Positions 3-64,000 of a stretch of DNA of 64,000 nucleotides are shown here, one piece after another. Each line of letters opens with the position of its first letter. Position 1 is the stretch's first letter. The stretch is from positions 160,001 to 224,000 of the forward strand of contig CAWAGQ010000005.1 in the NCBI GenBank assembly GCA_963781585.1, read 5' to 3'. This DNA is from an uncultured Gemmatimonadaceae bacterium (GTDB lineage: Bacteria; Gemmatimonadota; Gemmatimonadetes; Gemmatimonadales; Gemmatimonadaceae). A program made the position numbers and the translations under genes. The notes under the pieces are model-generated. The model was not told the DNA's origin, ran no database searches, and saw only the letters and a program-made list of their open reading frames with translations.

Positions 3-692
3 ACCGGGGCGAGCATCCCGTTAGGCGCTGCCGGTGGCGGACGCGGAGGTGGCGGAGGTGGCGGCGGGGGCGCGGGACGCGGCGGTGGCCCGCCGGGCCC
101 GTACGTGGTACCGGGGAAGTACAGCGCGACACTTTCCACGCGCGTGCAAGGGGTGGAGAAGCAGATCGCCGGACCAGTGACGTTCAACGTCGTCGGTGAT
201 CCGGCGAACCCCGTGACCCTCGCGGACCAGCAGGCCCGGTGGGAGTTTCAGCACAAGGCGATGGCGCTGGGGCGCCAGGTGAACGGGGCGATCGATGTCG
301 CCAATCTGAACAACACGAAGCTCGACCAGATGCGCCGAGCCCTCGATGCCACACCGAACGCACCGAAGGGCCTGCGCGACCAGGTGGTGGCCTACGACAA
401 ACGGCTCTCGGCGATTCTGTTCGCGCTGCGTGGGGACGTGGTGCTTGGAGCACGGAGTGACCCCGATCCGATGTCGATCCAGCAGCGGGCCGGAGCGGCC
501 GGGGCGTTCGGTTCCTGGTTAGGCAGGCCGACCGGGGCGATGGAGGAGCAGTACGCGATCGCGTCGACGCTGTTCGGCTCGGAGCTGCCGAAGCTCAGGC
601 AACTCGTGGAGACCGACATCCCCGCCCTGGAGCGCGAGCTGGAGCGGATCGGAGCGCCCTACACCAGCGGGAGGCTGCCGGGCCCGCCGTAG
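3..692 (+). CDS. C-terminal part of a VPS10/BNR-repeat glycosyl hydrolase-like protein (5' partial)
   Basis: Frame is open from the window start. A GGRGGGG linker and 'GPYVVPGKYSATL' are followed by a helical tail ending 'IPALERELERIGAPYTSGRLP', typical of this family's C-terminus. Confidence 0.7.
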   Translation, partial: TGASIPLGAAGGGRGGGGGGGGGAGRGGGPPGPYVVPGKYSATLSTRVQGVEKQIAGPVTFNVVGDPANPVTLADQQARWEFQHKAMALGRQVNGAIDVANLNNTKLDQMRRALDATPNAPKGLRDQVVAYDKRLSAILFALRGDVVLGARSDPDPMSIQQRAGAAGAFGSWLGRPTGAMEEQYAIASTLFGSELPKLRQLVETDIPALERELERIGAPYTSGRLPGPP

Positions 693-851
693 GGCAGTTG
701 ACGGCCGCGCGGCGTCCGCGCGGCGTCCCTGGGGGTACGCCCGCATCAAGCAGCACGCGAGCGACCCGCCGTCTCGAATTCGCCGTCTTCACGCCGCGAA
801 GCGTCAGGCACGGCACGGAGACCAGGGCAGCCGGAAGCTGTGACGATGACG

Positions 852-3035
852 CTACTTCCTGAGACAGAACCCCACATCAAAGGTGTTGTGGTTGTGCGAG
901 CCCGATTGGCTGCCCACGATTGATCGATCCCAGACCCGCAACAGCACCACATATCCGCATGGTTGCATTCCCGTTGTATCGAGCTCCCACTCATCCCCAC
1001 CCGCGACAAACGTGGCCGTTTCGGTCGTGGCCGGCGTCGCGGTCGTCGGGGCATTTGGCGACATGCTCGACGGCAGCGTCGACAAGGTGAACCCGCCGAA
1101 ATGGGCATCCCGCGCGACGAAGTGGCCCTGGATGGTTGTCCCCTTGGTGAAGTCCTTGCAGTCGCCGCCACTGTCGATGTGAATCTCGCAGGTGACTGGC
1201 GGCGGTTCGTACGGCAGCACAGCGGGGCGACGACGGGGCGCCGTGTTGTCGAGCTGGATGCTGTGCCACGGCGTGGTTCCCACCACAATGCCACCTAACG
1301 TGGCCATCTCGAGTCGGATCTCGTGGAGGTCGTCGCCCGGCGGCGTCCAATGCGCGAGCACCTGGTCCATGTTCGCCAGGGTGCTCATGTACGCGGCGTA
1401 GCCGGTGAGCGGATCCGGGGTGATGTTCGAGCCCACGCCGAGCCAGTTCACCACATGGAACGTGCTCTTGACGACCTCTTCGGTCAGGGGGTTGCCGAAA
1501 TTGCGCGCCCACAGGCGGTACTTGAATCCCGGCACCGGCGGTCCCTGGACGATGATGCGTCCCCCGAACGGGCACTCGCGGTTCAGCAACCAGGGATCGG
1601 CAGGATCGCCACCGAACGCGAAGGTCGCCAGGGGCTTGGTCATGCCGTCGCCGAATACGTTGATGTCAGCCACGCCAATGCCGCCAATGATGCTGATCAC
1701 CGGCTGGTCGCCGGGCATCGCGGTGCCGGGCCGGATCTGCACATGGGCGTCGAGGCGATTGCCCCAGTGCGTCAGAGCATCCGGGTCGGTCGTCGAAGGC
1801 GGCGTATTCCACGAGAGGACAGCGCGGATGCGCGCGATCTTCGGCCCGCCCCCTCGCCCTCCGCACGGGCGCCGGATCGCACTCAGGTCCACCGGGAGGA
1901 TCGCGCTGTACGCGAGCCCACCGGGCGGGAGCGCGGCAATGTCGTGAACGTTGACGGTGACGGTGTTGAGGTAGGTCCATTCACACGTGTCGCCCCAGTC
2001 CGCCCAGAGGGCCACGTATTCCAGGCTTCCGTGGGTGCACAGGTCACCCGAGTAGCCGAGTGGTCTCCTGATCCGGAAGGTCGCGATCAGCCGCTCGAGG
2101 TTGTACTCGAGACCCAGGCACTCGAGTTCTTCGTACGACACATCGGCCTTCGTCTTCTCCAGCGCGTTCACCACGACAGAGAGATCCAGGCCGACCGCCT
2201 TCCACTGCTCGGCGGCCACCGACAGCGCGTCTTGATCCGCCGACTTCAGCAGGGGCTGCAGGTGCGCAAAACCGAACCGGTGCGGTTCCACCGCGACGGC
2301 CTTGGACTTTCCCTTCGTCTGGTACAGTTCGGCCAGACTGCTCAACGACATCGGAGGTGGGTCGGGCAACGGAATGGGGAACGGCTTCACCTCGGCGGCC
2401 AGCGCGGGAAGGGTCTTCAGCAGGTCGCTCGGAACCATCTCGACGACGTCACCGAACCACAGAGGCCGGGGCGTGATCTGGATGTGCTCGTCCAGCACGT
2501 TCCCCCAGATCGGCGGCCAGTTCGCATTCCCCGCCGGAGGGATCAGCTGCCAGGAGAGGATGGCGCGGACGTTCGGCAACACCGGATGCCGACAGTTCTG
2601 ACGCTCCGGATCGAGAGGCAGCGTGACAACGTACGTGAGCGGCTTGTCGGGATGCCGGGCGCAGTCGAGCGTGTTGGGAATGTCATGGGCGTTGAATGCC
2701 GCCAGTCCTGCGTCGGTCCAGCCGGTTCCGTAGTCTACGAAAAAGCGGACATACTCCGTGGATCCGGGCGTACACAGCGTGCCGTTGTAGCCACCCGGCC
2801 GCTTGATCTGGATCGTGGCCTCGAGCAGGTCGAGCGCCGGATTGAACCCGACGCAGCTCACCTGCTCGTAGGTCGTATTGCCGAGGATCTTCTTGACCGG
2901 CTCGAACTGGCTCTTCTCGAGGTTCCCGAAGTAGTTGGGGTTGGTGGCGAGGAGCTTTCGGAACTCCAGCCGTTCCCTGGGTGGAACGTGCAGACGCTCG
3001 CGTGTCGCAGCGCTTTTCACGGCTCTGGCAGGCAT
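852..3035 (-). CDS. Hypothetical 727-aa protein with an internally duplicated domain
   Basis: Long ORF; ATG at 3035 preceded by GGAGG/GGAG. Two related units: 'YEQVSCVG...GYNGTLC..GSTEYV...HDI...VRAILSW...WGN.LD.HIQI' and 'YEELECLG...GYSGDLC..GSLEYV...HDI...IRAVLSW...WGN.LD.HVQI'. Confidence 0.85.
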   Translation of the reverse strand: MPARAVKSAATRERLHVPPRERLEFRKLLATNPNYFGNLEKSQFEPVKKILGNTTYEQVSCVGFNPALDLLEATIQIKRPGGYNGTLCTPGSTEYVRFFVDYGTGWTDAGLAAFNAHDIPNTLDCARHPDKPLTYVVTLPLDPERQNCRHPVLPNVRAILSWQLIPPAGNANWPPIWGNVLDEHIQITPRPLWFGDVVEMVPSDLLKTLPALAAEVKPFPIPLPDPPPMSLSSLAELYQTKGKSKAVAVEPHRFGFAHLQPLLKSADQDALSVAAEQWKAVGLDLSVVVNALEKTKADVSYEELECLGLEYNLERLIATFRIRRPLGYSGDLCTHGSLEYVALWADWGDTCEWTYLNTVTVNVHDIAALPPGGLAYSAILPVDLSAIRRPCGGRGGGPKIARIRAVLSWNTPPSTTDPDALTHWGNRLDAHVQIRPGTAMPGDQPVISIIGGIGVADINVFGDGMTKPLATFAFGGDPADPWLLNRECPFGGRIIVQGPPVPGFKYRLWARNFGNPLTEEVVKSTFHVVNWLGVGSNITPDPLTGYAAYMSTLANMDQVLAHWTPPGDDLHEIRLEMATLGGIVVGTTPWHSIQLDNTAPRRRPAVLPYEPPPVTCEIHIDSGGDCKDFTKGTTIQGHFVARDAHFGGFTLSTLPSSMSPNAPTTATPATTETATFVAGGDEWELDTTGMQPCGYVVLLRVWDRSIVGSQSGSHNHNTFDVGFCLRK

Positions 3036-3361
3036 TCTCCGCACCTCCGCTTCGGGGACCTCACGCCGGCGGCGCCGTGGAGCACCTGCGGCGCATGACT
3101 CCACGCCAACCGCCTGCCTAACGTCCCAGCTTGACCCGCACCACGCCCACGTCGAATGGCGAACCACGCGATCGACGTGGCCTCACACGATGATCTGGCA
3201 GGCAACAGGGCGCCAGTTCGCTTCTGAAAGCGTCGTAACGGATTTGAAAGGTACGAACGCCGGAGACGCTCCCCCGCAGCTCGAGCTCGCTTGGGTGCGG
3301 TTACGCTGTCGCGCGAGCATGGCGTCAGCCGCGCCGGTGCGTGACGCGATGCGGGCGCGCG

Positions 3362-5147: not shown

Positions 5148-6914
5148 ATGAAGCGCATCCCGATTCGTTCGCTCGCGGTAGGCATCAGCGCCGTGTTCCT
5201 CGTGCGCTCTCCACTCGTCGCTCAGAACCCACGGCGCACCGCCACTCCCCGCTCGGCGGCTGCACCGGCGTTCTCGGTGGTGGAAGCCACCATCGCCGAC
5301 ATGCGCAGCGCGCTCGAGCAGAAACGGACCACGTCGCACGAGATCGTCGTGCAGTCGCTCACGCGGATCGCGCTCTACGAGGACCACTTGCACGCGGTGA
5401 TCACCGTGAACCCCAGGGCGCTCGCGATCGCCGATTCGCTGGACCGCTTGCGCGCGCAGGGACGGATCCTGGGACCGCTGCACGGCATCCCGGTGGCGCT
5501 CAAGGACAACATCCACACGACGGACATGCGCACCACCGGCGGTGCACTGGCCTTCGCCGACCTGGTGCCGCCTTACGAGGCCACGCTCACGAAGAACCTC
5601 GAGGCCGCCGGCGCCATCATCCTCGCCAAGACGCAATTGACCGAGCTCGCCAACTGGGTGGCGAGCGGCATGCCCGGGAACTACAACGCGCTCAACGGCT
5701 ACGGGATGAACCCCTGGGATCCGCGCCGCGATCCGCGTCCGAATTTCTTCGATGGGCGCCCGGTGCTGTCCACCGGCGGCTCGAGCTCGGGGGTGGGCAC
5801 GAACGTGAGCTTCTGGGCAGCCAATGTCGGGACCGAGACATCGGGTTCCATACTGAGTCCGTCGAATCAGAACATGCTCGTCGGCATCAAGCCCACGGTG
5901 GGCCGCGTGAGCCGTTACGGCGTCATTCCCATCACGGCCGACCAGGACACGCCGGGACCGATGGCCCGTACCGTCTCCGACGCCGCGATCATGCTCGGCG
6001 CCCTCGAAGGCGCCCAGCCGGACCCGAACGACCCGGCAACCACCAAGTGCCCGCCGCCCGCCGGCCGGGACTACACCAGATTTCTCAACGCCAGGGGGCT
6101 CCAGGGAGCACGCATCGGGATCCCCCGGGCATTCTTTTACGAGCGCACGCCGGTGCCGGGGAGCACCAACCCGCGCGGCGGGCTTTCCGACGCACAGCGC
6201 ACCATCATGGACGAGGCGATCGCCGCCCTGAAGGCGCAGGGCGCCGTCCTCGTCGATCCGGCCGACATCCCGAGCGTGATCGACACGAGCGCGGCCAGCA
6301 ACTTTCTCAACTGGAACCCGTGCAGCGGACTCGACGAGGCCAGGGGACTGGACGCCGACTGTTCGATCGCCTTCAAGTACGGGATGAAGCGCGATTTCAA
6401 TGCCTGGCTCAACTCGTTAGGCGATCGGGCGCCGGTCAGGACCCTGACCGAGTTGCGGGAATGGAACATCGCACATCAGCGGGCCGGGGCGATCAAGTAC
6501 GGTCAGGCGGAGCTCGACATCTCGGACGAGATGAACGTGCAGGCCGACCGCGAGCGGTACGAAGCCGACCGGCGCAAGGATGTTCTCCTGTCGGCAACCG
6601 GCGGGATCGACGCCGCCCTCAAGGCCAACCGGCTGGACGCGCTGCTGTTTCCCGGGGTGAGCAGTGCCAACATCGGGGCACGTCCGGGTTATCCCACCGT
6701 CACCGTGCCGTTCGGATTCGTGCCGGTGGGCACCGGCCCCGGAACCGGTCGTGGCGGCGGCGGTGCCGCGTTCCCGCCCGGGTTCGACCCAAAGCCGTCA
6801 CCGTTCAACGTGAGCTTCACCGGGACGGCGTGCAGCGAACCGAAGCTGATCGAGATCGCGTACGCGTTCGAGCAGGCGACGAAGAAGCGAAAAGCGCCGC
6901 CCGGGTTTCCGTGA
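5148..6914 (+). CDS. Secreted amidase (amidase signature family)
   Basis: Signal peptide; 'GPLHGIPVALKDN', 'GGSSSG' and 'GTETSGSILSPS' catalytic motifs. Confidence 0.95.
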   Translation: MKRIPIRSLAVGISAVFLVRSPLVAQNPRRTATPRSAAAPAFSVVEATIADMRSALEQKRTTSHEIVVQSLTRIALYEDHLHAVITVNPRALAIADSLDRLRAQGRILGPLHGIPVALKDNIHTTDMRTTGGALAFADLVPPYEATLTKNLEAAGAIILAKTQLTELANWVASGMPGNYNALNGYGMNPWDPRRDPRPNFFDGRPVLSTGGSSSGVGTNVSFWAANVGTETSGSILSPSNQNMLVGIKPTVGRVSRYGVIPITADQDTPGPMARTVSDAAIMLGALEGAQPDPNDPATTKCPPPAGRDYTRFLNARGLQGARIGIPRAFFYERTPVPGSTNPRGGLSDAQRTIMDEAIAALKAQGAVLVDPADIPSVIDTSAASNFLNWNPCSGLDEARGLDADCSIAFKYGMKRDFNAWLNSLGDRAPVRTLTELREWNIAHQRAGAIKYGQAELDISDEMNVQADRERYEADRRKDVLLSATGGIDAALKANRLDALLFPGVSSANIGARPGYPTVTVPFGFVPVGTGPGTGRGGGGAAFPPGFDPKPSPFNVSFTGTACSEPKLIEIAYAFEQATKKRKAPPGFP

Positions 6915-8097: not shown

Positions 8098-9271
8098 CTC
8101 TTGTCACGCGCCGGAACACTTCCCCGAGCCAAGCCACGTGGCGCCCCACGTCATGACGTTCACGAACCTGCGCCGCACGCTCGTCAGGCACTCCTGCCGC
8201 CAGCTGCCGTCCGGCGGCGACCTCGGCGAGACAGCCCGCCAGCGCGCCGGTATCTCCATTCGGAAAGAGCAGCCCGGTCACGCCGTTCTCCACGCTCTCG
8301 GCCAGCCCTCCGGTCGCGCTCGCAATGACCGGCACGCCGCGGACGATCGCCTCGAGGGCAGTCAGGCCCAGGGGCTCGGCCCATCGCGACGGTGCGACCA
8401 GAGCCCAGGCGTCGGCCAGCTGCGACTCCACCTGCTCGAAGGGAAGCCAACCCGTGAATTCCACCCCGTCACCCAGTCCGAGCGCCGCAGCCAACCCCTC
8501 CAGCGATGGCCGGAGTGGTCCATCACCCACCACGCGCAGCCGTATTCCCTGCACCTGCGCGCTTGCGCGCGACACCGCGTGCAGCAGGGTTTCCACGCCT
8601 TTCTCGCGCGCCAGTCGTCCCGTGAACACGAACAGGGGATCCCGCGCGGGGGCGCGGCGGAAGGTCGCCGACGGAGGCGCGATCGGCATCGGCGACCAGC
8701 TCGACTCGATGCCGGCATCGGCCAGCGCGTGTTGCATCCACCCGCTGCAGGTGACCACGGCTGCCGCTCGGTGCACTTCATGGCGTATGCGCGCATAACG
8801 AGGGCGGTCGCGCAGCCAGTGGGCCAGGGGGAAGCATCCGCCACGCCAGCACACGAGGCCGGCCGGTGACGTGCAGAGCGAGTCGTCAGGCAGGAGCTTG
8901 AGTCCGTTCGGACAGATCGGTTTGTAGTACAGGATACTGAGCACCGTGGGCACGGCGCCGGTCGCGGCCACCACCGACGGCGACAGGTGCATCTCGAACA
9001 TGGTCACGTGCACCACATCGGGCCTGAAGTCGGCCACCGCGCGTCGCATCGCGCGCGCTGCCGCCGGATTCGCGATCTGCAGCACGCTCTGCAGCACCGG
9101 ACTGCGTGAGCCCGGGGCGACGTAGTCGGCCACCGTCGCGCCGCTCCCCACGCTGCTGGTGAGCAGGCGTACCTCGTCGCCGGCAGCCTCCAGCCCTCGC
9201 ATCAGGAGCGTCACGTACGTCTCCACCCCCCCACCTTCGCCGCCCCAGTCGGTCGCGAACAGAATCCGCAT
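8075..9271 (-). CDS. Glycosyltransferase family 4 (GT-B)
   Basis: 'MRILFATD..GGGVETY', 'FTGRLAREKG', 'EPLGLTALEA' (EX7E). Its ATG overlaps the upstream gene's stop. Confidence 0.93.
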   Translation of the reverse strand: MRILFATDWGGEGGGVETYVTLLMRGLEAAGDEVRLLTSSVGSGATVADYVAPGSRSPVLQSVLQIANPAAARAMRRAVADFRPDVVHVTMFEMHLSPSVVAATGAVPTVLSILYYKPICPNGLKLLPDDSLCTSPAGLVCWRGGCFPLAHWLRDRPRYARIRHEVHRAAAVVTCSGWMQHALADAGIESSWSPMPIAPPSATFRRAPARDPLFVFTGRLAREKGVETLLHAVSRASAQVQGIRLRVVGDGPLRPSLEGLAAALGLGDGVEFTGWLPFEQVESQLADAWALVAPSRWAEPLGLTALEAIVRGVPVIASATGGLAESVENGVTGLLFPNGDTGALAGCLAEVAAGRQLAAGVPDERAAQVRERHDVGRHVAWLGEVFRRVTRATSPRSP

Positions 9272-10254: not shown

Positions 10255-11186
10255 CAGATATACCGCGATCGGTGCACTTCGTATTCCGCGAGCTGCAGCG
10301 CCGTCTTGCCGCCGCCGGCCAGGTACCCCGTGGCCTCGCCAGCGGCCGTTACCATCGCGCTGAGAAGAATGAGCGCCAGTGTTCCCGCGGGCGCTTGCGA
10401 TTTCTGGTACGCCCACTGGACCGAACGCAGCGGCTTGCCGGCGATCAGGACGGCGGCGATGGGCGTGGCGAGGAAATACAGCAGCCGGCGCGACGCGGAC
10501 CATCCTCGCGAGCGGGCCGTTCCCCAGAATCGCCCCGTCAGAAAGCGTTCCGGCAGCCAGCCGCGGAAAGTTGCAACATTGAGGTGCGCCAGACGTGCCC
10601 CGGGCTCGATGAGAAAGCGCCCGCCGCGGTCGTGAAGGTACGCATCAAGCCCGCTGCCGTAGTCGAGCATCTCTGCCAGGCGCTCCCCGAGATCCACCAG
10701 TGCCTGACGGCGGAAGCATCCGTTGTAGGTGGCGACGGTCTCGATCTCGGTGCGGACCGCCGGATCGATCCAGTGCCGGTAGGTCAACATCAGCAGCGCC
10801 CAGCTCATCGCCTTTGTCGGATTGCCGTTTTCGATCACCGGCATGACCACGGCGTAGTCGCCGCCGGCGTGCGCGGCGAGCAGCGCCTGGAGACAATCGG
10901 GCGCCGGATAGGAGTGGGTCTCACCGATGAAGACCAGAGGACACGAGGCCGCGCGGACACCTGCGGCGCGCGCTGGAGAGAGCGGCATGATCGCATCAAC
11001 CTCGACCACCCGGACTGCGCCCATTCCCGCGGTCTCCCGCGGGTCGAGCTCCAACTCCGATTCCGACCGGCAGACGATGACGAGCTCGATGGCTGGAGAG
11101 ATCGTCTGCGCCCGCACCGCACGCACCACGTCGCGGATCGTGGCGAAGGTGTCGGTCACCACGACGTACGAGACCTCGAGGCTCAC
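10254..11186 (-). CDS. Glycosyltransferase family 2-like protein
   Basis: GT-A N-terminus 'VSYVVVT...IELVIV', 'RAAGVRAAS..LVFIGETH', and C-terminal hydrophobic helices. Confidence 0.85.
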   Translation of the reverse strand: MSLEVSYVVVTDTFATIRDVVRAVRAQTISPAIELVIVCRSESELELDPRETAGMGAVRVVEVDAIMPLSPARAAGVRAASCPLVFIGETHSYPAPDCLQALLAAHAGGDYAVVMPVIENGNPTKAMSWALLMLTYRHWIDPAVRTEIETVATYNGCFRRQALVDLGERLAEMLDYGSGLDAYLHDRGGRFLIEPGARLAHLNVATFRGWLPERFLTGRFWGTARSRGWSASRRLLYFLATPIAAVLIAGKPLRSVQWAYQKSQAPAGTLALILLSAMVTAAGEATGYLAGGGKTALQLAEYEVHRSRYI

Positions 11187-12112
11187 GCGTACCGCTCCTT
11201 ATGCAGCTCGTACTCGAGCATCCTCGCCTCGGCGTGGCCCTCTCCGGCCACGTATCCAGCCGCCTCGCCGATCGCCCAGAGGACGCTTCCGCCGGCCACG
11301 GCCACCAGCGTGCCCCTCGGGAGGCGGTTGTCGCTGCCGGCGAGCGTGACCGCCGGACGTGTCCTCGCGAAGCGGACCAGGGGAACGAGCGCCGACCCGC
11401 AGAAGTAGACCACTCTACGGGTGAGCGACCATTCCCGGCTTCGGTGCGACCCGAACAGCCGGCCGCCCCAATAGCGTTCGGCCGCCCACGCGATCCAGGG
11501 CGCGACATTCAGGTGCGCCACACGCGCGTTAGGCACGTGACAGAACCGCGCGCCCCGCGCGGCCAGCGCTGCATCCAGCGGCCCGCCCGGCTCCAGCATG
11601 TGCGCGAGCCCGTCGCCCGCGCTCAGCAGGACGTCGCGCTTCCAGCAGGCGTTGTAGGCCGGAGGCTCGGCAATCCGGCCCGCCGGACGCTCGGCGAGGA
11701 AGCGACCGTAATCCATGACCAGGCCACTCCAGCTGCGTGCGGTCCGCGGATTCCCGTTTGCCATGCCGGGCGCCACCGCGTCCCACGGGCCGTCGTGGGC
11801 CGCAAGCAGCTGCTCGGCCCACGAAGGCGCCGGGAACGCATGCGTCTCGCCGAGGACCACGACTGGCGCGCGCGCCGCGCGAACGCCCGCTGCCCGGGCC
11901 ACGCCCATCGGCACGAGCGGGCTCTCCACCACGGTAATGCCCGAAAGCGCATCTGCCGTGTCAGCCGGCACCTGGCAGTTCGTCGCCGACGGGCACACCG
12001 CCACCAGCTCGATCTCACGCGCCAGCGTCTGGGCGCACAGATGGCTCGTCACGCGACGGATGGTCGCGTAGTCGTCGGTGAGAATGACGATCGAGAGTCG
12101 GGGGGCAGGCAT
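11183..12112 (-). CDS. Glycosyltransferase family 2-like protein (paralog of the adjacent gene)
   Basis: 'LSIVILTD', 'RAAGVRAARAPVVVLGETH'. The ORF-track N-terminal extension is only the translated repeat. Confidence 0.85.
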   Translation of the reverse strand: MPAPRLSIVILTDDYATIRRVTSHLCAQTLAREIELVAVCPSATNCQVPADTADALSGITVVESPLVPMGVARAAGVRAARAPVVVLGETHAFPAPSWAEQLLAAHDGPWDAVAPGMANGNPRTARSWSGLVMDYGRFLAERPAGRIAEPPAYNACWKRDVLLSAGDGLAHMLEPGGPLDAALAARGARFCHVPNARVAHLNVAPWIAWAAERYWGGRLFGSHRSREWSLTRRVVYFCGSALVPLVRFARTRPAVTLAGSDNRLPRGTLVAVAGGSVLWAIGEAAGYVAGEGHAEARMLEYELHKERYA

Positions 12113-12123
12113 GGGCGAGAGGA

Positions 12124-12228: not shown

Positions 12229-12467
12229 GCAGGTCGGAAGATGTGCCAGACTATGGCATTGCCGCCACTTGGCTAGCTACGGAATGCCGCGAAAGGCCAG
12301 GCTTGACGTGCGCCATGGTCATCGCCGGCCCCGCCGGTCCCTTCGGAAACGCAAAGATCGTGCGCACCGTGCCTGACTCGCGGTAGCCGGGCGGTCAGGC
12401 GTCACCTGTTTGCCTTGGGAACTGACTGGGATCGCGCTCCGCACCCCCGACCACGACCTTCCAGGCC

Positions 12468-14575: not shown

Positions 14576-14739
14576 ACACGTATCCGGACAGCAGAGATGG
14601 TCCTCTGCGCGCGCTCGGAATCGGCGTGGCGGAGGCCCCGCGGCATTGCTGCGACCGGTTCATTCGCGGTCTCGTCAGGCAATGCGAGGCCGGCGGAGCT
14701 ACTCAACAGAGCGGCACCGCCGGCGTATCCGTTTTCAAT

Positions 14740-20042: not shown

Positions 20043-20085
20043 GTCGCCCAAGGTAGACACCGGGCCTGACGCGCGCACGACGCGT

Positions 20086-31083: not shown

Positions 31084-31154
31084 GACGGCCCCGCCACCGG
31101 TCCCTCCTCCTCCGGCGTCAGGCACGCCGCCTGGTCTCGTCATGACCCGGATGG

Positions 31155-51052: not shown

Positions 51053-51183
51053 TGGACGCTCTGTGGGCAGGGACGAGCAATACCTCGGAGCGCTTCGCGA
51101 CTGGTCAGGCGCCTCTGACTGACGCGCGCTCCTGTGACCAGCGGCCCGCCGCCGCTGGCAAAGCACGGGACCCGGCGACCCGC

Positions 51184-52632
51184 TCAGCTGATCGGCTTCT
51201 TGTCCCCCGTCACGCTCCGAACCAGCCGGTACATGAACTCCAGGCTCTCGTAGAACGCCCGCACTGGAATGTGCTCGTTCATCCCGTGGGCATTCGTTTC
51301 ACCGTAGAACTGTCCCGCCACCCCGTACGTCGCGATTCCGCCCAGGCGGAGCGATACCCCATCGGTCGCTCCTGTGCTCATCGTCGGAATCACCGGCACA
51401 CCGGGCCACAGCTCGTTCGTGATCCGCTCGATCTGCGCCATCAGCGCCGGCGTCAGCGGCGACGGCGGCGAGTTGCGCGCCGAGCCGCGCGCCGTGACGT
51501 GCACGCCTGTATCAGCCACCACTCTTTCGAGCACGCCCTTCACGGACTCCGCGGTCTCGTCAGGCAGCACGCGGCAGTTGATCGTCGCCCGCGCCCGCTG
51601 CGGCAGCGCGTTGCTGGCGTGCCCGCCCTCCAGCATCGTCGCGACACACGTCGTACGCAGCTGCGAGTTGTACCTGGGGTCCGCGGACAGCGTCGCCGCC
51701 GCCATGGCGTCGCCCGGATTCGCGACAATGGCCGTCATCGCCGCCGCCATCCCCGGATCCTCGGACTTGAGCGTCGGCGCCAGACGCGTGAAGTACGCGC
51801 GCGTGACGTCGTTGAGATGCACCGGAAAGATCGACGGCGTCACCTTCACCAGCGCCGCCGCCAGCTCGGTGATGGCGTTGTCGGGACGCGGCACCGAGCT
51901 GTGCCCGCCCGGATTGAACGACTCCAGATAGAACGTCTGGACCTTTTTCTCGCTCGCCTGCACGTCGTGCGATACCTTCACCGTGTCGCGCAGCCGCCCG
52001 CCGCCCCCCTCGTTGAACGCGAATTCGGCGTCGATGAGGTCGCGGTGCTCGCGCATCAGCCATCCTGCCCCGTTCGCCCCCCCGCCTTCCTCGTCCGTCG
52101 TCGCCGCCATGATGATGTCGCGGTCCGGCGAATACCCCTCGGCCTTGAGCCGCATCAGGATCGTGAGATCGATCGCCGCGTCGTCCTTGTTGTCCGATAC
52201 GCCGCGTCCGTAGAACGTCCCGTCCTTCTCGATGAACTGGAACGGCGGCAGCGTCCAGTCGGCCGGTTTGGCTTCCACCACGTCGATGTGCGAGAGCAGC
52301 AGAATCGGCTTCTTCCCCGTGTTTCTGCCGTGCAGTCGCGCCACGATGTTGCCCTTTCGCGGGGCGTTCGACAGCACAACGACGTCGGAGTCCGGAAACC
52401 CCGCCGCCTTGAGCCGAGCCGCCATCGCCTCCGCCACCTTCAGCGTCGAGCCGTCGCTGTCCTCGGAATTGATCTCGATCAGTTCCTTGAAGACGTCGCG
52501 CGCGACCGAGTCCCAGTGGGCGGTGGTGCCCGCCTGAGCGTGCAGCGAAAGGGGAGCGCCTGCGAGGGCTATGACAGTGAGTATCGCGGTCAGACGCGCG
52601 AGCAACAGCGGGCAGAGCATCGAGGGACGCAT
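51184..52632 (-). CDS. Secreted M20/M25/M40 metallopeptidase
   Basis: 'SHIDVV', 'GRGVSDNK', 'DEEG', 'GGHSS', 'GATD', 'AHGMNE'. Confidence 0.93.
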   Translation of the reverse strand: MRPSMLCPLLLARLTAILTVIALAGAPLSLHAQAGTTAHWDSVARDVFKELIEINSEDSDGSTLKVAEAMAARLKAAGFPDSDVVVLSNAPRKGNIVARLHGRNTGKKPILLLSHIDVVEAKPADWTLPPFQFIEKDGTFYGRGVSDNKDDAAIDLTILMRLKAEGYSPDRDIIMAATTDEEGGGANGAGWLMREHRDLIDAEFAFNEGGGGRLRDTVKVSHDVQASEKKVQTFYLESFNPGGHSSVPRPDNAITELAAALVKVTPSIFPVHLNDVTRAYFTRLAPTLKSEDPGMAAAMTAIVANPGDAMAAATLSADPRYNSQLRTTCVATMLEGGHASNALPQRARATINCRVLPDETAESVKGVLERVVADTGVHVTARGSARNSPPSPLTPALMAQIERITNELWPGVPVIPTMSTGATDGVSLRLGGIATYGVAGQFYGETNAHGMNEHIPVRAFYESLEFMYRLVRSVTGDKKPIS

Positions 52633-52862: not shown

Positions 52863-53792
52863 ATGGATCCCAATTCGGGCAACTCCCTCGCCAAGCTCCT
52901 CCTCCTCGTCGCGCTGGGAGGGTTCACCCTCTACTACCTGGTGATCTTCGTCCGGGCGATCGCGAAGAAGCGGCACGAAGCGGCCGGCGAGAGCAACACC
53001 CCGACTCCCATCGGGCTCGGGACAGGATTCATCACCAATTTCTTCGATACGCTCGGGATCGGCTCGTACGCCCCCACCACCTCCATCTTCCGCTTTCTCA
53101 AGATGGTGCCTGACGAGTGGATCCCCGGTACGCTCACCATCGGGCACACCCTTCCAACGATCGCCGAAGCCTACATCTTCACCCGGATCGTCCCCGTGGA
53201 TCCCACCACGCTGATGGCCATGATCGGGGCCTCGATTCTGGGCGCCTGGCTTGGCGCCGGCGTGGTCTCGAAATGGCCGCGGCGGATGGTTCAGCTCGGA
53301 ATGGGTTTCTGCCTGCTGGCGGCCGCCGGCTTGATGGCGGCCTATGCGCTTCGTGGGCAGCCCGTGGGAGGACAGGCAATCGGGGTCACCGGGGTTTTGC
53401 TTGGCGTCGCAATCGCCGGCAATTTCGTCCTCGGCGCCCTCATGACCATCGGCATCGGACTCTACGCGCCCTGCATGATCCTGATCAGCCTCGTCGGCAT
53501 GAATGTGAAAGCGGCCTTCCCGATCATGATGTGCTCCTGCGCGTTCCTGATGCCGGTGGCCAGCGCGCGCTTTGCCCGCACCGGAGCCTTCCACCTCAAG
53601 ACCGCACTCGGCCTGGCAATTGGCGGCGTCCCGGCGGTCCTGATCGCCGCTTTCATCGTGAAGTCGCTGCCCCTCAATGCGGTGCAGTGGCTGGTCGTCG
53701 TGGTCGTGCTGTACACGTCCTGGTCGCTGTTGCGAGCGGCGCGGCGCGAGCGCGCCACGGGGTCGGCGCCTGCGACCGAGACCGCGATGTAG
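52863..53792 (+). CDS. Sulfite exporter TauE/SafE family permease
   Basis: Multi-TM; 'NFFDTLGIGS.APTT', 'GIGLYAP', 'AFPIMM'. Confidence 0.88.
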   Translation: MDPNSGNSLAKLLLLVALGGFTLYYLVIFVRAIAKKRHEAAGESNTPTPIGLGTGFITNFFDTLGIGSYAPTTSIFRFLKMVPDEWIPGTLTIGHTLPTIAEAYIFTRIVPVDPTTLMAMIGASILGAWLGAGVVSKWPRRMVQLGMGFCLLAAAGLMAAYALRGQPVGGQAIGVTGVLLGVAIAGNFVLGALMTIGIGLYAPCMILISLVGMNVKAAFPIMMCSCAFLMPVASARFARTGAFHLKTALGLAIGGVPAVLIAAFIVKSLPLNAVQWLVVVVVLYTSWSLLRAARRERATGSAPATETAM

Positions 53793-55993: not shown

Positions 55994-56793
55994 TGCAGTG
56001 GTGGTGCAGCGCGTCCAACCTGCCGTGGTCGTGGACCTGGCGTCCCTACCCGGGCGTCTGGCTGTTCATCGGGCTCGTCTTCATCCTCGTCTGGTTGTGG
56101 AACAGGACCGCCGCAGACCGATCGGGACAGCGCCCGCCGCCCTTGCACCCCTTCTTCCTGCTCGGACTGGTGCTGCTCTGGATCGCGCTCGACTGGCCAC
56201 TCGGCACGTTAGGCGCGGGCTATCTCGCCAGTGCGCACATGCTGCAGTTCCTGCTCATGTGTCTGGTCGCGCCGCCGCTGCTCCTGCGCGGCCTCTCCCA
56301 CGATGCCCTCGCGATCCTCGACCGGGAATCCCGCTTCGCGAGGGCGTTCTGCCGCCTGACAGCGCCCGGTCGTTCGTTGATCCTGTTCAATGCGGTGGTG
56401 CTCGTGACCCACCTGCCACCGGTCGTCGACACCCTGATGCGGACCCAGTTCGGCTCGCTCGCCATCGACCTCGTCTGGATCGCCGCCGGGCTGCTCTTCT
56501 GGTGGCCGGTCATTCTCGATTCGCCGGCCCACCCGCGGTTCTCGCCGCCGCTCAAGATCGGCTATCTGGTCGTCGGCATGATGTTCAGCCCCATCATGTT
56601 CGGTCTGGTCGGCTTCCTCGTCTACAGCGACCACCCGCTGTACGGCATCTTCGAGCTGGCGCCTCCGTTCCCCGGCATCACCTCGCACGATGATCATCAG
56701 CTCGCCGGGGTCATGATGAGCGTGGGCGGCGCCGTGATCGCGTTCACCGCCATCAGCGTGATCTTCTTCAAGTGGAGCAAGGCCGAGGCGTAG
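55993..56793 (+). CDS. ctaG: Cytochrome c oxidase assembly factor (Caa3_CtaG family)
   Basis: TGATG coupling; 'SAHMLQ...VAPPLLL', 'LFWWP', 'DHQLAG.MM'. Confidence 0.85.
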   Translation: MQWWCSASNLPWSWTWRPYPGVWLFIGLVFILVWLWNRTAADRSGQRPPPLHPFFLLGLVLLWIALDWPLGTLGAGYLASAHMLQFLLMCLVAPPLLLRGLSHDALAILDRESRFARAFCRLTAPGRSLILFNAVVLVTHLPPVVDTLMRTQFGSLAIDLVWIAAGLLFWWPVILDSPAHPRFSPPLKIGYLVVGMMFSPIMFGLVGFLVYSDHPLYGIFELAPPFPGITSHDDHQLAGVMMSVGGAVIAFTAISVIFFKWSKAEA

Positions 56794-56797
56794 CCGG

Positions 56798-58423
56798 TCA
56801 GCGCTCCTTCCCCGTCCGCCATTGCTCGAGCGCCTTCACCCGGGATTCGAGCGCGGCAAGGCGGTGCCCGGTCACCTGTACCGGCGCCGCGGGCGTGGCG
56901 CCCGCAACCGCTCGCCCCGTCCCGCCGTGTGCGCTTCCCACTCCGCGCGCCGACACCCGGATGAACGCCCGGCCGATCGGCCCCAGCCACACCAGCCGGA
57001 ACAGGCGCTCGCCGATCGGCATGCGGAACGGACCGCGTACCAGGAGCAGGAAGCTGACGCCAAGGAGGCTCAGTCCCGACGCCGCCATCACGAAGCGACC
57101 TAACGACGCCCCCCCCACCGCTCCCGGATCGCCGCTCCGGTTGACGCTGGCGCCCGTGCCCAGCGAGATCCGCACGTTCAGTGAGGCCCGGATGAGCACG
57201 AATGCCACCGGGAGCAACAGCACCGCGATCACGACCGTTCTGCGCCGCCGGCGTCTGGTGTCGGGATCGGCCCGCAGCTGCTGCCGGAGATTCTCGCGTT
57301 CGTCGACCACGGCGTGCAGCCCCCTGGACACATCGGCGGGCCGAAACCCCAGCACCGCCAGCCGGCGGGCGGCAGACGACACCAGCAGCGCCCGGGTCAT
57401 GGCAATCACGAACAGAATGATCGTCGGAAGGAGGGCGTAGGTCGCTCCGACCTCCTTGCGAAGGGTCCGAAGGGTGAGCCAGCTGGTGAGCGCCAGAAAC
57501 ACCAGCACCAGGCCGAGCGTCCCCGCTTCCTGTGCGAACAGCCGGATGGGAACCGGGATCTCGGCCGCCGCCAGCTGGGCGACGTCGATCGCCTCGACCA
57601 GTGCCTCGGCCGAGGCGAACCGGTCGTCGGGCCTTTTCGCCACGCAGCGGTCGATCGCCTCGCCTAACGCTTCCGGGAGATCCGGTCGGAGCGTCCGCGC
57701 GGGGGGCGGCATCTCGGTGAGCTGCCTGACGAGAATCTGCTGCGTCGAGTCTCCGGTGATCGCCGGACGACCGGTGAGCGCGTACAGCGCCACCAGGCCG
57801 AGCGAATAGAGGTCGCTCCGCCCGTCCACCGTGTCTCCCGACGCCTGCTCCGGGCTCATGTACTCGGGCGTGCCGACCACTTCGCCCACCCGCGTCATCC
57901 CCTGCGTGCCGACCGGGGCGGTGATGGGCCGCGAGATGCCGAAGTCCATGAGTTGGGCACGGCCGGTGGCACGCTCGAGCATCACGTTGTCGGGCTTGAT
58001 GTCGCGATGCACCACACCCCGGCCGTTCGCGTACGCCAGCGCGTAGCCGATGTCCTGCAGCAGGCGCACGATCCCGCGCACGTCGAGGGGCCCGGCGCGC
58101 CGCATGCGCTCCGCCAGACTCTCCCCCTCCACGTACCCCATCGCGAATGCCAGCAGTCCGTCACGCTCCTCGACCGCGTGCACCGGAACGATGTTGGGAT
58201 GCGAGAACGACGCCGCCGTCCGCGTCTCCCGCAGGAAGCGCTCCCTCAGGGTGGCATCGCCCGCGAACTCGGGTGGAAGCACCTTCAGCGCGACCGGCCG
58301 ATCCAGCCGCAGGTCGCGGGCGAGATACACCGCGCCCATGCCGCCGCGACCGAGCTCGCGCTCGATCTCGTAGCGGTCGCCGAGTCGCCTGCGAATCTCG
58401 TCGAGGGAAGTCTGGTCGGTCAC
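56798..58423 (-). CDS. Membrane-anchored Ser/Thr protein kinase (Hanks type)
   Basis: 'GRGGMG.VY', 'VALK', 'HRDIKPDN', 'DFG', 'GTPEYMSPE', and C-terminal TMs. Confidence 0.95.
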   Translation of the reverse strand: MTDQTSLDEIRRRLGDRYEIERELGRGGMGAVYLARDLRLDRPVALKVLPPEFAGDATLRERFLRETRTAASFSHPNIVPVHAVEERDGLLAFAMGYVEGESLAERMRRAGPLDVRGIVRLLQDIGYALAYANGRGVVHRDIKPDNVMLERATGRAQLMDFGISRPITAPVGTQGMTRVGEVVGTPEYMSPEQASGDTVDGRSDLYSLGLVALYALTGRPAITGDSTQQILVRQLTEMPPPARTLRPDLPEALGEAIDRCVAKRPDDRFASAEALVEAIDVAQLAAAEIPVPIRLFAQEAGTLGLVLVFLALTSWLTLRTLRKEVGATYALLPTIILFVIAMTRALLVSSAARRLAVLGFRPADVSRGLHAVVDERENLRQQLRADPDTRRRRRRTVVIAVLLLPVAFVLIRASLNVRISLGTGASVNRSGDPGAVGGASLGRFVMAASGLSLLGVSFLLLVRGPFRMPIGERLFRLVWLGPIGRAFIRVSARGVGSAHGGTGRAVAGATPAAPVQVTGHRLAALESRVKALEQWRTGKER

Positions 58424-59149: not shown

Positions 59150-59196
59150 TTGATCGCGCCGCCATCTCACAGGACGGAATGCCAGGGAGTCACACG

Positions 59197-60000
59197 ATGG
59201 CAGAATTCACCGGACGAGTGGCCTTCATCACCGGCGCGGCCCACGGACAGGGTCGTGCGACGGCGCTCGCGCTCGCGGCCGCAGGGGCGCACATCGCCGC
59301 CTATGACGTCGCACGTCCGCTGGAGTATCCCGGGTATCCGCTCGCCTCGTCCGATGATCTCGCTTCCCTCGCGAGCGCGTGCGCGGAACTGGGCTCCACG
59401 TGCCTGACCTTCGCCGGTGACGTGCGTGACGATGCCGCGATCACCGCGGCGGTGTCGGCCACCGTCGATCGTCTGGGACGCATCGACATTCTGTTCAACA
59501 ACGCCGGAATCTGCGCGTACGGTCTCGCCCACGAGCTTTCCGAGGAAGCCTGGGACAGCATGATCGACATCAACCTCAAGGGAAGCTGGCTCGTTGCGCG
59601 GCGCGTGATTCCGGTGATGATCGCCCAGCGCGCGGGCGTGATCATCAACAACGCGTCGATCGCCAGCTTTCGCGGGATGAACCGGCTCAGCCACTATGCC
59701 GCGTCGAAGTGGGGGCTCACCGGCCTCACCAAATCGTGGGCCATCGAGCTCGCGCCGTACAACATCCGCGTCAACTCGGTGCACCCCACCGGCGTGAACA
59801 CCCCCATGAACGATGGACTCGCGATGCTCGAGGGAACCACGCCACGCGAAGTCGCCGAGCGATCGGCTGGCAACCTGTTGCCCGTACCATGGATCGAACC
59901 GGAAGACGTGGCCAATGCGGTGCTCTTTCTCGCCTCGGATCGCGCTCGCTATGTCACCGGTGCGCAGTTCGTCATCGACGCAGGTGTGCTCACGCGTTGA
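59197..60000 (+). CDS. SDR oxidoreductase, mycofactocin-coupled-like subfamily
   Basis: 'ITGAAHGQG', insertion 'DVARPLEYPGYPLASSDDL', 'NNAG', 'YAASK', 'HPTGVNTPM'. Confidence 0.88.
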   Translation: MAEFTGRVAFITGAAHGQGRATALALAAAGAHIAAYDVARPLEYPGYPLASSDDLASLASACAELGSTCLTFAGDVRDDAAITAAVSATVDRLGRIDILFNNAGICAYGLAHELSEEAWDSMIDINLKGSWLVARRVIPVMIAQRAGVIINNASIASFRGMNRLSHYAASKWGLTGLTKSWAIELAPYNIRVNSVHPTGVNTPMNDGLAMLEGTTPREVAERSAGNLLPVPWIEPEDVANAVLFLASDRARYVTGAQFVIDAGVLTR

Positions 60001-63313: not shown

Positions 63314-63464
63314 AGCGGCCGAAGCCGATGCTCGGCGCGAGCGACTCGGATGCGGCCCGCGAGCGCACCGACCAGCAAATCGCTATGCTTTACGCGCTCG
63401 CGTCTGCTGTTCGTTGAGCTCGTGTGGTTCCTCCTGGCCCTCGGCCCTTCCCCCTTTCTCCACC

Positions 63465-64000
63465 ATGCCGCGCTCGCCTTTCCTCAGATCCATCGTCATC
63501 GGTGCACTCGTGACCGCTACGGTCTCGCCCGTGTTCGCACAGAACGGCGGGATGCCCTTCGAGTTCGACTCCACGACCATTGCCTCGTTCCGATGGCGTA
63601 ACGTCGGGCCGGCGAACACACTGGGTCGAATCTCCGACGTGACCGGGCTTCCCTCGCCCTCCAAGACGTTTTTCGCCGCGGCTGCGGGAGGAGGGATCTG
63701 GAAGTCGACCAGCAACGGCGTCACCTGGCGACCGGTCTTCGATACCCAGCGCGTGGTGGCGATGGGCATGCTCGCGATCGCGCCGAGTGACACCATGCAG
63801 GTGTGGGCCGGCACCGGCGAGCCGAACTCCCGGAACACGATCTCACCCGGAGGCGGGGTCTACAAGTCGATGGACGGCGGCATCACCTGGAAACTGATGG
63901 GGCTCGAGCGGACCCAGGCCATCGGCCGCATCGTGGTCCATCCCACCAACCCGGACATCGTCTACGTCGCCGCGTTAGGCGCGCCGTGGAGCGCCAGTCC
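63465..64000 (+). CDS. VPS10/BNR-repeat glycosyl hydrolase-like protein (3' partial)
   Basis: Signal peptide, 'WRNVGPA..GRISD', 'GGIWKS..NG.TW', 'GTGE.N.RN', 'GVYKS.DGG.TW'. Confidence 0.9.
   Translation, partial: MPRSPFLRSIVIGALVTATVSPVFAQNGGMPFEFDSTTIASFRWRNVGPANTLGRISDVTGLPSPSKTFFAAAAGGGIWKSTSNGVTWRPVFDTQRVVAMGMLAIAPSDTMQVWAGTGEPNSRNTISPGGGVYKSMDGGITWKLMGLERTQAIGRIVVHPTNPDIVYVAALGAPWSAS

Follow-up and report, generated by a model that had tools for sequence, protein, structure and literature searches.

CGTYAGGCR, a degenerate gene-embedded DNA word in a 64-kb window of an uncultured Gemmatimonadaceae genome, and its likeness to DNA uptake sequences

Introduction

Hyper-abundant DNA words embedded in genes have been well studied in few clades, namely the DNA uptake sequence (DUS) of the Neisseriaceae, the uptake signal sequence (USS) of the Pasteurellaceae and the palindrome HIP1 of the cyanobacteria, and their origin is disputed, with proposals ranging over molecular drive, selection and repair bias. 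Here we describe a word of this kind, CGTYAGGCR, in a 64,000-nt stretch of DNA (contig CAWAGQ010000005.1, positions 160,001 to 224,000; hereafter the window) from the genome of one uncultured Gemmatimonadaceae bacterium. A first-pass annotation of the window, made by eye, had reported one form of the word, the octamer CGTTAGGC, as a dispersed motif written into coding sequence. To our knowledge competence is not known in the Gemmatimonadota, and a word at the density of DUS in a soil and freshwater phylum without described competence would widen the phenomenon.

DUS (GCCGTCTGAA) and USS are short, non-palindromic words of 9–10 bp that occur at about one copy per kb, in both orientations about equally and mostly in genes. 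They have a sharp core and weaker edges, are placed where proteins tolerate them, with rare codons and amino acid changes accepted, and are reportedly shared across whole families as dialects; a bias in DNA uptake has been established for them. DUS number ∼2,000 copies, or 1% of neisserial genomes, and are located in permissive regions (PMC2397512), frame and orientation biases of uptake sequences within genes have been described (PMC2346458), and DNA uptake enhancing sequences are described as accumulating through mutation and uptake bias (PMC1939737). HIP1 (GCGATCGC) and the HIP1-like octamers of cyanobacteria are 15- to 300-fold over-represented and lie in genes; they have no explanation at peptide or RNA level, one-off variants matter and some genomes carry a replacement octamer (PMC5861425). 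Whether HIP1 serves chromosome architecture or transformation is still debated (PMC5861425; PMC13756078). HIP1 is reported to enhance transformation (PMC13756078), which sets a precedent for a hyper-abundant octamer acting in that process.

Results

The window, which has a GC content of 67.4%, was found to contain 20 exact copies of CGTTAGGC, 12 on the plus strand and eight on the minus strand, all of them where they had first been reported (Table 1). In 100 dinucleotide-preserving shuffles the octamer occurred 0.93 times on average and at most four times, and the two to three copies that the first-pass annotation had expected from a zero-order estimate are right at this GC content. Under an order-2 Markov model CGTTAGGC had the highest z-score of all 8-mers in the window (20 observed, 0.43 expected), the next unrelated words all being derived from a heptamer tandem array, and it was likewise the top 8-mer when the window was compared with the loci of 17 GC-matched relatives, in which there were 0 copies in 297 kb. 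Genes were mapped by hand, rather than with a gene caller, from long open reading frames (ORFs) showing a higher GC content at first than at second codon positions and a high GC content at third positions (GC3); 32 of the 46 ORFs scanned had a Pfam match. Two codon-preserving nulls, a synonymous-codon shuffle and a codon-order shuffle, were applied to 43 mapped genes (55.4 kb, with ∼13% of the window non-coding on this map), 1000 times each for CGTTAGGC. The mapped genes held 18 copies against means of 0.68 and 0.48 and maxima of 4 and 3, respectively, so that the enrichment holds in the window when codon usage is preserved; this count took in the copy at 3116, later judged to be non-coding, and left out the copy at 63973.

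The octamer proved to be part of a larger unit. CGTCAGGC, which carries C at position 4 (hereafter the C-form, CGTTAGGC being the T-form), was present in 28 copies where 4.3 were expected from the 17 relatives' loci, and in genes 25 copies were found against 4.3–4.7 in codon-preserving shuffles (maximum 12 in 300). A differential k-mer scan returned GTCAGGC (38 vs 9.4), GTCAGGCA (19 vs 1.4) and CGTCAGGC (28 vs 4.4), and CGTCAGGCA was present 15 times against 0.6. Among the 24 one-off neighbours of CGTCAGGC a clear enrichment was seen for CGTTAGGC alone, with A and G at position 4 giving 1 vs 0.4 and 2 vs 3.0, while the 7-mer and 6-mer sub-words were all enriched (GTTAGGC 22 vs 0.5, CGTTAGG 24 vs 0.5, TTAGGC 23 vs 1.2). 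The core GTYAGGC occurred in 60 copies (0.94 per kb), of which 48 had C at position 1 and 52 had A or G as the ninth base; past the ninth base the only pattern in the flanks of these 60 copies was the GC3 periodicity of the genes around them. CGTYAGGCR itself was found 41 times in the whole window against 4.33 (maximum 10 in 100 shuffles), and 36 times in genes against 2.3–3.1 in codon-preserving shuffles. Since CGTCAGGC is enriched too, the unit is the degenerate word CGTYAGGC(R), with Y at position 4, and the octamer that had been taken for the whole signal is its T-form. We hold with high confidence that this word is sharp and non-palindromic and recurs about once per 1.1–1.6 kb on both strands equally. 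The six one-mismatch copies of the octamer that had been noted earlier were all present; their mismatches always fell on position 1 or position 8, and they retained the same rare codons.

Eighteen of the 20 T-form copies lay in genes, as the first-pass annotation had stated, and all 18 kept the reading given there, 11 as sense NCG-TTA-GGC and seven as antisense CCT-AAC. The copy at 3116, ∼80 nt upstream of a likely ATG, is non-coding, that at 17463 is intergenic, with no terminator or promoter found at it, and that at 63973 lies inside a real gene fragment (peptide …VHPTNPDIVYVAALGAPW…). On the 43-gene map 10 of the 22 TTA codons and seven of the eight CCT-AAC codon pairs fell within the exact octamer; for the degenerate word the corresponding shares of rare codons were 13/23 for TTA, 12/74 for CCT, 6/61 for TCA and 6/94 for AGG. 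The proposal that the DNA rather than the protein is maintained survived the codon-preserving nulls, and it agrees with the presence of the word on both strands, in unrelated genes, in non-coding DNA and in the rare codons TTA, TCA, AGG and CCT.

In all 20 coding copies of GTTAGGC the wobble bases of the codons fell on word positions 2, 5 and 8, whichever strand the gene was on. The C-form was found in five frames, three of them sense (xCG-TCA-GGC, 6; GTC-AGG-C, 6; xGT-CAG-GCx, 7) and two antisense (CCT-GAC, 5; xGC-CTG-ACx, 8), with six further copies in non-coding DNA. None of the 52 coding copies was placed in a stop frame, and no T-form was found in the frames where a change from C to T is synonymous (GTC to GTT, CTG to CTA; 0/14). 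The T-form is confined to NCG-TTA-GGC and CCT-AAC because position 4 is there a non-wobble base, a first or second codon base, and the choice of T or C there depends on whether the protein has Leu (TTA) or Ser (TCA), or Asn (AAC) or Asp (GAC). In frames that put position 4 on a wobble base the GC3 preference of the genome makes it C (GTC not GTT, CTG not CTA), and the CGT-CAG frame is C-only because T would create a TAG stop. The fixed reading frame, once regarded as a property of the signal, follows from these codon constraints on Y. Every stop-free frame is used, and we are equally sure that the word is divided between coding and non-coding DNA according to the length of each. The word was carried at 7/12 compatible x-P-N-[GAVDE] positions and at 11/53 [SPTA]-L-G positions, and at 0/30 [SGRC]-L-T and effectively 0/34 V-R positions, the single V-R match being the non-coding 3116 copy caught in an over-extended ORF. 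Peptide availability and codon rarity were rejected as sources of the frame bias, as neither accounts for the unused GTT-AGG and CTA-ACG, and the T-form was rejected as a deaminated C-form, as T is missing exactly where C-to-T is synonymous. For scans of this kind it follows that, when a word is degenerate and the genome GC-rich, the variant containing AT is its visible tip, and that an apparent phase-lock to codons may be degeneracy combined with GC3 pressure rather than a property of the signal.

The 60 copies of GTYAGGC were divided 31:29 between plus and minus strands (p = 0.90), and the 22 copies of GTTAGGC 13:9. GC skew was negative throughout, which places the window in one replichore, and the early observation that the octamer has no strong strand skew (12:8) stands for the wider word within this single replichore. 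With respect to genes 32 copies were sense, 20 antisense (p = 0.13) and eight non-coding. A check of spacing regularity gave a divided answer: the 20 T-form copies were over-regular (coefficient of variation 0.58, P = 0.0095), but the evenness was gone with all 60 copies (coefficient of variation 0.86, P = 0.15) and significance was also lost with sets of 48 or 38 copies, and even spacing was dropped as evidence. The only close inverted pair, 12371/12393, lies 22 nt apart in a spacer, and its predicted folding is no more stable than that of shuffled sequences (z = 0.25). Two further features of the T-form were observed. Its copies alternate in orientation more than expected (15 runs vs 10.6, z ∼2.1 for 20 copies, by our own arithmetic), and the first and last copies (19–26 and 63973–63980) are 18 and 20 nt away from the window's start and end, for which a rough estimate of chance is ∼4e-5 with 20 sites and ∼3e-4 with 60 sites.

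Relatives were collected from a genome-collection scan with the S9 peptidase gene at 38412–40076 as the marker, which yielded 80 loci of 12–22 kb each, the closest relatives being represented by proteins alone. The comparisons used 28 high-GC related loci, the 17 GC-matched loci mentioned above and the related loci with a GC content of at least 0.60 (443 kb). The best relatives by this marker were metagenome-assembled genomes (MAGs) of Gemmatimonadaceae and Gemmatimonadales, at 73–80% amino acid identity, followed by other Gemmatimonadota, Acidobacteriota and Bacteroidota; the genome of the window itself was not recovered by the scan. CGTTAGGC was absent from 78 of the 80 loci and present once each in L020 and L068, and GTTAGG[CT] was found five times in the 443 kb against 25 times in the 64-kb window. 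The first-pass suggestion of a lineage-wide signal was not borne out, as the word was enriched in 0/28 high-GC related loci (0–0.40 per kb), Gemmatimonadaceae at 73–80% marker identity included. From the sequences compared, the word appears to be specific to a narrow lineage of the Gemmatimonadaceae and neither phylum-wide nor family-wide.

Orthologous sites could be compared at three positions, one neighbouring gene being syntenic in the relatives' loci. At site 37261 Pro-Asn was found in 0/14 best-aligned related loci, which had P-A, P-V, P-S, P-T, Q-A, T-T and others; relatives read, for example, CTG-CCC-GCC-GAC, from which the word needed a synonymous change of Pro and a replacement of Ala by Asn. 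At site 37720 P-N was present in one of the 14 best-aligned loci (L009, as CCG-AAC). Both sites are in variable loop or linker regions. The closest relative is represented by protein P0132, which matches the two halves of the gene at 90% and 95% identity and carries Pro-Asn at 37261 as well as at 37720; it is encoded on a 42.8-kb contig together with P0002. The A-L-G of site 41383 is common to P0002 and P0003 (78–79% identical). The residues encoded by the motif were thus retained in the proteins of the closest relatives at 3/3 sites examined, as judged at the protein level. In our reading these comparisons point to a natural word, which would predate the split from the closest relative and postdate that from genomes of ∼80% identity, and which appears to have entailed amino acid changes at permissive positions.

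No comparably strong word of their own was found in the relatives, in 12–22 kb per locus, the strongest being CCCTGGA in L025 (21 vs 4.6). This word, in a Gemmatimonadota MAG (L025, 1–18641), has 21 dispersed copies (nine plus, 12 minus) against 4.56 in dinucleotide shuffles, the one null applied to it, with a maximum of 14 in 200; it contains CCWGG and may be an abundant word of that genome. In L024 (1–19060) AGGGAGT(C) had 12 copies, split 10:2 between the strands, where the other loci would predict 0.7, and resembles a polar word of the type of the FtsK-orienting polar sequences (KOPS) and architecture-imparting sequences (AIMS) rather than a symmetric one. Other words first picked up in relatives were set aside as tandem or REP-like (repetitive extragenic palindromic) repeats in L003, L007 and L015 and as a Tyr-Tyr codon word in L024, and CGGGGTC in L018 (20 vs 9.7) was weak and not comparable to CGTYAGGCR.

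Table 1. Copies of GTYAGGC and one-mismatch copies of the T-form in the window
Form	Position	Strand	Reading and location
T-form CGTTAGGCg	19..26	+	CCG-TTA-GGC, ORF 3-692+
GGTTAGGCa, position 1 G	517..524	+	TGG-TTA-GGC, ORF 3-692+
C-form CGTCAGGCa	802..809	+	non-coding
CGTTAGGT, position 8 T	1293..1300	-	ACG-TTA-GGT, gene 852-3038-
T-form CGTTAGGCa	3116..3123	-	non-coding, upstream of gene 852-3038-
T-form	6415..6422	+	TCG-TTA-GGC, amidase gene 5100-6914+
GGTCAGGCg, position 1 G	6501..6508	+	xGT-CAG-GCx, amidase gene 5100-6914+
C-form CGTCAGGCa	8182..8189	+	GTC-AGG-C, ORF 8138-8869+
AGTCAGGCc, position 1 A	8360..8367	+	xGT-CAG-GCx, ORF 8138-8869+
C-form CGTCAGGCa	8884..8891	+	non-coding, 15 nt past ORF 8138-8869+
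C-form CGTCAGGCa	10702..10709	-	CGT-CAG-GCx, ORF 10254-11186-
T-form	11527..11534	+	antisense CCT-AAC, ORF 11183-12220-
AGTCAGGCa, position 1 A	12371..12378	-	non-coding; inverted partner 12393
GGTCAGGCg, position 1 G	12393..12400	+	non-coding; inverted partner 12371
C-form CGTCAGGCa	13735..13742	-	GTC-AGG-C, trypsin/PDZ protease gene 13484-14467-
C-form CGTCAGGCa	14673..14680	+	non-coding
T-form	16507..16514	-	CCG-TTA-GGC, beta-lactamase-family gene 15487-17190-
T-form	17463..17470	+	non-coding, gap 17230-17635
T-form	19881..19888	-	GCG-TTA-GGC, LuxR-type response regulator 19377-20078-
C-form CGTCAGGCc	20064..20071	-	xCG-TCA-GGC, LuxR-type response regulator 19377-20078-
C-form CGTCAGGCa	20307..20314	-	GTC-AGG-C, histidine kinase 20086-23148-
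C-form CGTCAGGCa	20696..20703	-	CGT-CAG-GCx, histidine kinase 20086-23148-
GGTTAGGCa, position 1 G	21307..21314	-	TGG-TTA-GGC, histidine kinase 20086-23148-
GGTCAGGCg, position 1 G	23445..23452	-	antisense xGC-CTG-ACx, 23282-25504+
C-form CGTCAGGCa	23541..23548	+	xCG-TCA-GGC, 23282-25504+
CGTTAGGA, position 8 A	24328..24335	-	antisense TAT-CCT-AAC-GAA, 23282-25504+
C-form CGTCAGGCt	25383..25390	-	antisense xGC-CTG-ACG, 23282-25504+
T-form	25979..25986	+	GCG-TTA-GGC, ORF 25675-27672+ (RNase_H_2 family)
C-form CGTCAGGCg	28824..28831	-	antisense xGC-CTG-ACG, helicase gene 27671-29239+
C-form CGTCAGGCg	30071..30078	-	CGT-CAG-GCx, histidine kinase 29368-31143-
T-form	30519..30526	+	antisense CCT-AAC, histidine kinase 29368-31143-
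C-form CGTCAGGCa	31116..31123	+	antisense CCT-GAC, histidine kinase 29368-31143-
T-form	31683..31690	-	CCG-TTA-GGC, sigma-54 activator 31155-32480-
C-form CGTCAGGCt	32506..32513	-	CGT-CAG-GCx near 3' end, PD40 protein gene 32493-34409-
T-form	34190..34197	+	antisense CCT-AAC, PD40 protein gene 32493-34409-
C-form CGTCAGGCc	34653..34660	+	antisense xGC-CTG-ACG, 34554-37061-
C-form CGTCAGGCt	34992..34999	+	antisense xGC-CTG-ACG, 34554-37061-
C-form CGTCAGGCa	35909..35916	+	antisense CCT-GAC, 34554-37061-
C-form CGTCAGGCg	36381..36388	-	xCG-TCA-GGC, 34554-37061-
T-form	37261..37268	-	antisense CTG-CCT-AAC-GAC (L-P-N-D), S9 peptidase N-terminal part; Asn derived
T-form	37720..37727	-	antisense CCG-CCT-AAC-GCC (P-P-N-A), Gly/Pro-rich linker, S9 peptidase gene; P-N shared with P0132
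CGTTAGGT, position 8 T	38079..38086	+	TCG-TTA-GGT, 37076-38410+
C-form CGTCAGGCa	39263..39270	-	antisense CCT-GAC, S9 peptidase 38412-40076+
C-form CGTCAGGCt	40912..40919	-	antisense xGC-CTG-ACG, 40146-43289+
T-form	41383..41390	+	GCG-TTA-GGC (A-L-G, also P0002, P0003), 1047-aa protein 40146-43289+
C-form CGTCAGGCg	42755..42762	+	GTC-AGG-C, 40146-43289+
GGTCAGGCa, position 1 G	44524..44531	-	GTC-AGG-C, 43553-44887-
C-form CGTCAGGCg	46087..46094	+	xCG-TCA-GGC, 45912-47504+
C-form CGTCAGGCg	46128..46135	+	CGT-CAG-GCx, 45912-47504+
C-form CGTCAGGCg	46339..46346	+	xCG-TCA-GGC, 45912-47504+
T-form	46969..46976	+	ACG-TTA-GGC, 45912-47504+
T-form	47429..47436	-	antisense CCT-AAC, 45912-47504+
T-form CGTTAGGCt	49606..49613	+	antisense CCT-AAC, molybdopterin oxidoreductase 47612-49753-
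TGTCAGGCa, position 1 T	49826..49833	-	xTG-TCA-GGC, 49757-50215-
GGTCAGGCg, position 1 G	51103..51110	+	edge of ORF 50790-51104-; counted non-coding
C-form CGTCAGGCa	51558..51565	+	antisense CCT-GAC, M20 peptidase 51184-52692-
C-form CGTCAGGCa	53108..53115	-	antisense CCT-GAC, TauE gene 52863-53792+
T-form	56207..56214	+	ACG-TTA-GGC, CtaG gene 56002-56793+
TGTCAGGCg, position 1 T	56354..56361	-	antisense xGC-CTG-ACA, CtaG gene 56002-56793+
CGTTAGGT, position 8 T	57098..57105	-	TCG-TTA-GGT, protein kinase 56798-58423-
T-form	57662..57669	-	GCG-TTA-GGC, protein kinase 56798-58423-
C-form CGTCAGGCa	57724..57731	-	GTC-AGG-C, protein kinase 56798-58423-
GGTCAGGCa, position 1 G	59402..59409	-	antisense xGC-CTG-ACC, SDR gene 59179-60000+
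T-form	63973..63980	+	GCG-TTA-GGC (…VYVAALGAPW…), 3'-open propeller-type gene

Discussion

A sharp, asymmetric 9-mer that occurs about once per kb, symmetrically on both strands and in all frames, and that accepts rare codons and lies in variable segments of proteins is best matched by uptake sequences of the DUS type. The word is like DUS and USS in length, density, balance of orientations, location in genes, tolerance by the host protein and sharpness of core relative to edges, and its density matches that of the ∼2,000 DUS copies making up 1% of neisserial genomes. We tentatively read CGTYAGGCR as a self-DNA recognition tag of this kind, spread by molecular drive and most plausibly through natural transformation, and assign this reading a probability of roughly 0.35. 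A sequence-specific DNA receptor, acting most plausibly in natural transformation, would favour fragments that bear the word; alleles gaining the word by chance would be transmitted more often, which is molecular drive; and copies would build up wherever the protein tolerates them, at the cost of rare codons and some amino acid replacements. The first-pass annotation had listed an uptake sequence, an organisation site and a methylation or recombination target side by side, and of these the uptake-like signal is the best analogue, while the polarity of Chi or KOPS was not found (31:29).

Several results weigh against a self-DNA tag. Unlike DUS and USS, the word is not shared by related genera, as seen in the 28 high-GC loci, and has no clear dialect in them, nor did the relatives' loci hold a word of comparable strength. 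The window has none of the terminator-forming inverted pairs known from Neisseria and no extended, AT-rich flank as in the USS of Haemophilus, the word has one internal degenerate position (Y), and the evenness of the T-form spacing disappears with the full set of copies. Among the 46 ORFs of the window scanned against Pfam there was no gene for competence, for a sequence-specific DNA receptor such as the minor pilin ComP that serves DUS, or for a methyltransferase. Frequencies in the proteome moved in the expected direction, but weakly (PN 20.2 vs 14.6 and [SPTA]LG 27.8 vs 22.3 per 10,000 residues). In the literature searched no report of competence or uptake sequences in Gemmatimonadota was found, a survey of ComEC contained no mention of Gemmatimon, and papers matching the word strings were, among the matches listed, primers or unrelated.

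Among other explanations, it is credible, if unlikely, that the word serves an abundant protein of the nucleoid or of chromosome architecture as a binding site and that selection acts on the density and distribution of its copies, along the lines of the proposal by Xu, Lawrence and Durand for HIP1. Such a site would be hyper-abundant and sharply defined, as this word is, and HIP1 provides a precedent for lineage-specific replacement octamers (PMC5861425). The T-form copies are spaced more evenly than random, but this is missing with 60 or 48 copies; the retention of motif residues in the closest relatives' proteins at 3/3 sites would fit site conservation, but it was judged at the protein level and at three sites only. 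The site of a structural protein would also be expected in related genera, which are without the word, and no candidate protein was found in the window. HIP1 itself is a palindrome with known methylation sites and is phylum-wide, whereas CGTYAGGC differs from its own reverse complement, is found in one narrow lineage and has no known methylase. We consider it improbable that the word is a by-product of repair or modification, for example of a recently acquired methyltransferase with a Vsr-like very-short-patch repair ratchet, in which case it would reflect mutational bias and be no signal. Its narrow and patchy distribution does resemble that of restriction–modification specificities, the Y/R degeneracy is typical of such recognition sites, and a ratchet was proposed for HIP1 by Elhai, as cited in PMC5861425. 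However, a ratchet at one position cannot write the word, as every 7-mer and 6-mer sub-word is enriched, and the copies needed several changes, including GC-to-AT changes against the bias of the genome and replacements such as GCC to AAC; with deamination the T-form should peak where C-to-T is synonymous, where 0/14 were found. The single-position ratchet was rejected because all sub-words are enriched and multi-base and non-synonymous changes were needed.

A signal for recombination or DNA-end processing, either Chi-like (RecBCD or AddAB) or for protection of self DNA from a nuclease, with both orientations used, seems more improbable still. Like Chi, KOPS and AIMS, which are read by DNA-processing motors, the word is non-palindromic and over-represented, being the most exceptional 8–9-mer in the window, and Chi sequences differ between lineages. 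The established words of the Chi and KOPS/AIMS types reportedly have a strong strand bias relative to replication (PMC5861425; PMC3384302), whereas this word shows no polarity within one replichore of uniformly negative GC skew (31:29 overall, 13:9 for GTTAGGC), and its density and enrichment (∼10-fold to well over 20-fold) lie above those of known Chi sites. The proximity of the first and last T-form copies to the window ends might raise the suspicion of an assembly error or of a word written in by synonymous recoding, which we regard as very improbable: frame-blind placement would hit stop frames and 0/52 coding copies do so, the C-form is enriched too and in all five open frames, the one-off copies hold the same rare codons, the derived Pro-Asn of the two tested sites recurs in an independent public protein of a closer relative, and the 1047-aa protein of the window is present letter for letter in a public collection. 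The likelihood of a cause at the level of protein or translation (a peptide motif or a special use of TTA), or of a mobile element or integron attC site, is close to negligible. TTA is a rare and potentially regulatory codon in high-GC bacteria, but the word is found in five frames, on both strands and in eight non-coding places and encodes L-G, S-G, V-R, R-Q-A, P-N, P-D and L-T, and no Rfam family was matched in the window that would support an RNA reading. The fit of GTTAGGC to the integron core GTTRRRY, pointed out at first pass, is formal: the sites lie 22 nt to several kb apart within conserved ORFs, without a partner inverse core, a cassette or the RYYYAAC/GTTRRRY spacing of 50–150 bp (the sole close inverted pair being 22 nt apart), and no integrase was found among the 46 ORFs scanned. 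Flanks without similarity beyond the core and the location of 52/60 copies in genes also differ from REP elements and miniature inverted-repeat transposable elements, which are mostly intergenic.

As the word appears to be young, missing at 73–80% marker identity, close genomes could reveal its gain by mutation or by recombination, its conservation and any co-occurring gene. It is also conceivable, and in our view quite doubtful, that the Gemmatimonadota have a fast-evolving, positive self-marking in which each narrow lineage writes its own 7–9-bp word genome-wide at about one copy per kb, with a reader whose specificity would change like that of restriction–modification systems; CGTYAGGCR may be one candidate and the weaker CCCTGGA of L025 another. 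On that reading the window would hold a young tag, absent at ∼80% and present at ∼90–95% protein identity, and the birth and spread of an uptake or self-recognition sequence could be dated and reconstructed, unlike those of DUS, USS and HIP1.

Other features of the window

No tRNA genes were found in the window. Tandem arrays of GGCC-containing heptamers were observed in spacers adjoining gene starts, at 12123–12229, 14513–14574, 52700–52772 and 54733–54801. They include AGGCCAA (15.3 units, 99% matches), AGAGGCC (8.9 units) and its reverse complement GGCCTCT (10.1 units), and a 14/21-nt TGGCCTRTGA array is also among them. The period of seven is no multiple of three, and the arrays could be spacing or phase-variable elements. 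Tandem arrays in spacers were seen in related loci too, with 21-nt units in L003 and 36-nt units in L007.

The S9 peptidase gene (37076–40076) is split into two overlapping frames, 36944–38785 and 38412–40076. Its orthologue is intact elsewhere, as one 1004-aa ORF in L003 and as the single 1029-aa protein P0132, and the alignment suggests that the frame shifts by one base near 38470, through either pseudogene formation or an assembly error; the window's own version, at full or half length, was not found in the protein collection. The adjacent 1047-aa protein (40146–43289, plus strand) had no Pfam match at 1e-5, and a collection of 5.8 billion proteins contained only 10 relatives of it. In a nine-sequence alignment the invariant columns include GGG 622–624, the Ser-rich S655, S658-G659-G660-S661 and G663, and D856-G857, and a distant relative carries PF01734 (patatin). 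The protein is probably a membrane-anchored, patatin-like lipase of a family restricted to the lineage, as predicted from these sequences. An ORF of the RNase_H_2 superfamily (25675–28254, plus strand) and one for an SF1 helicase (27671–29239, plus strand; AAA_11/AAA_12) overlap in different frames, and the pair could be a two-gene nuclease–helicase module or a further frameshift.

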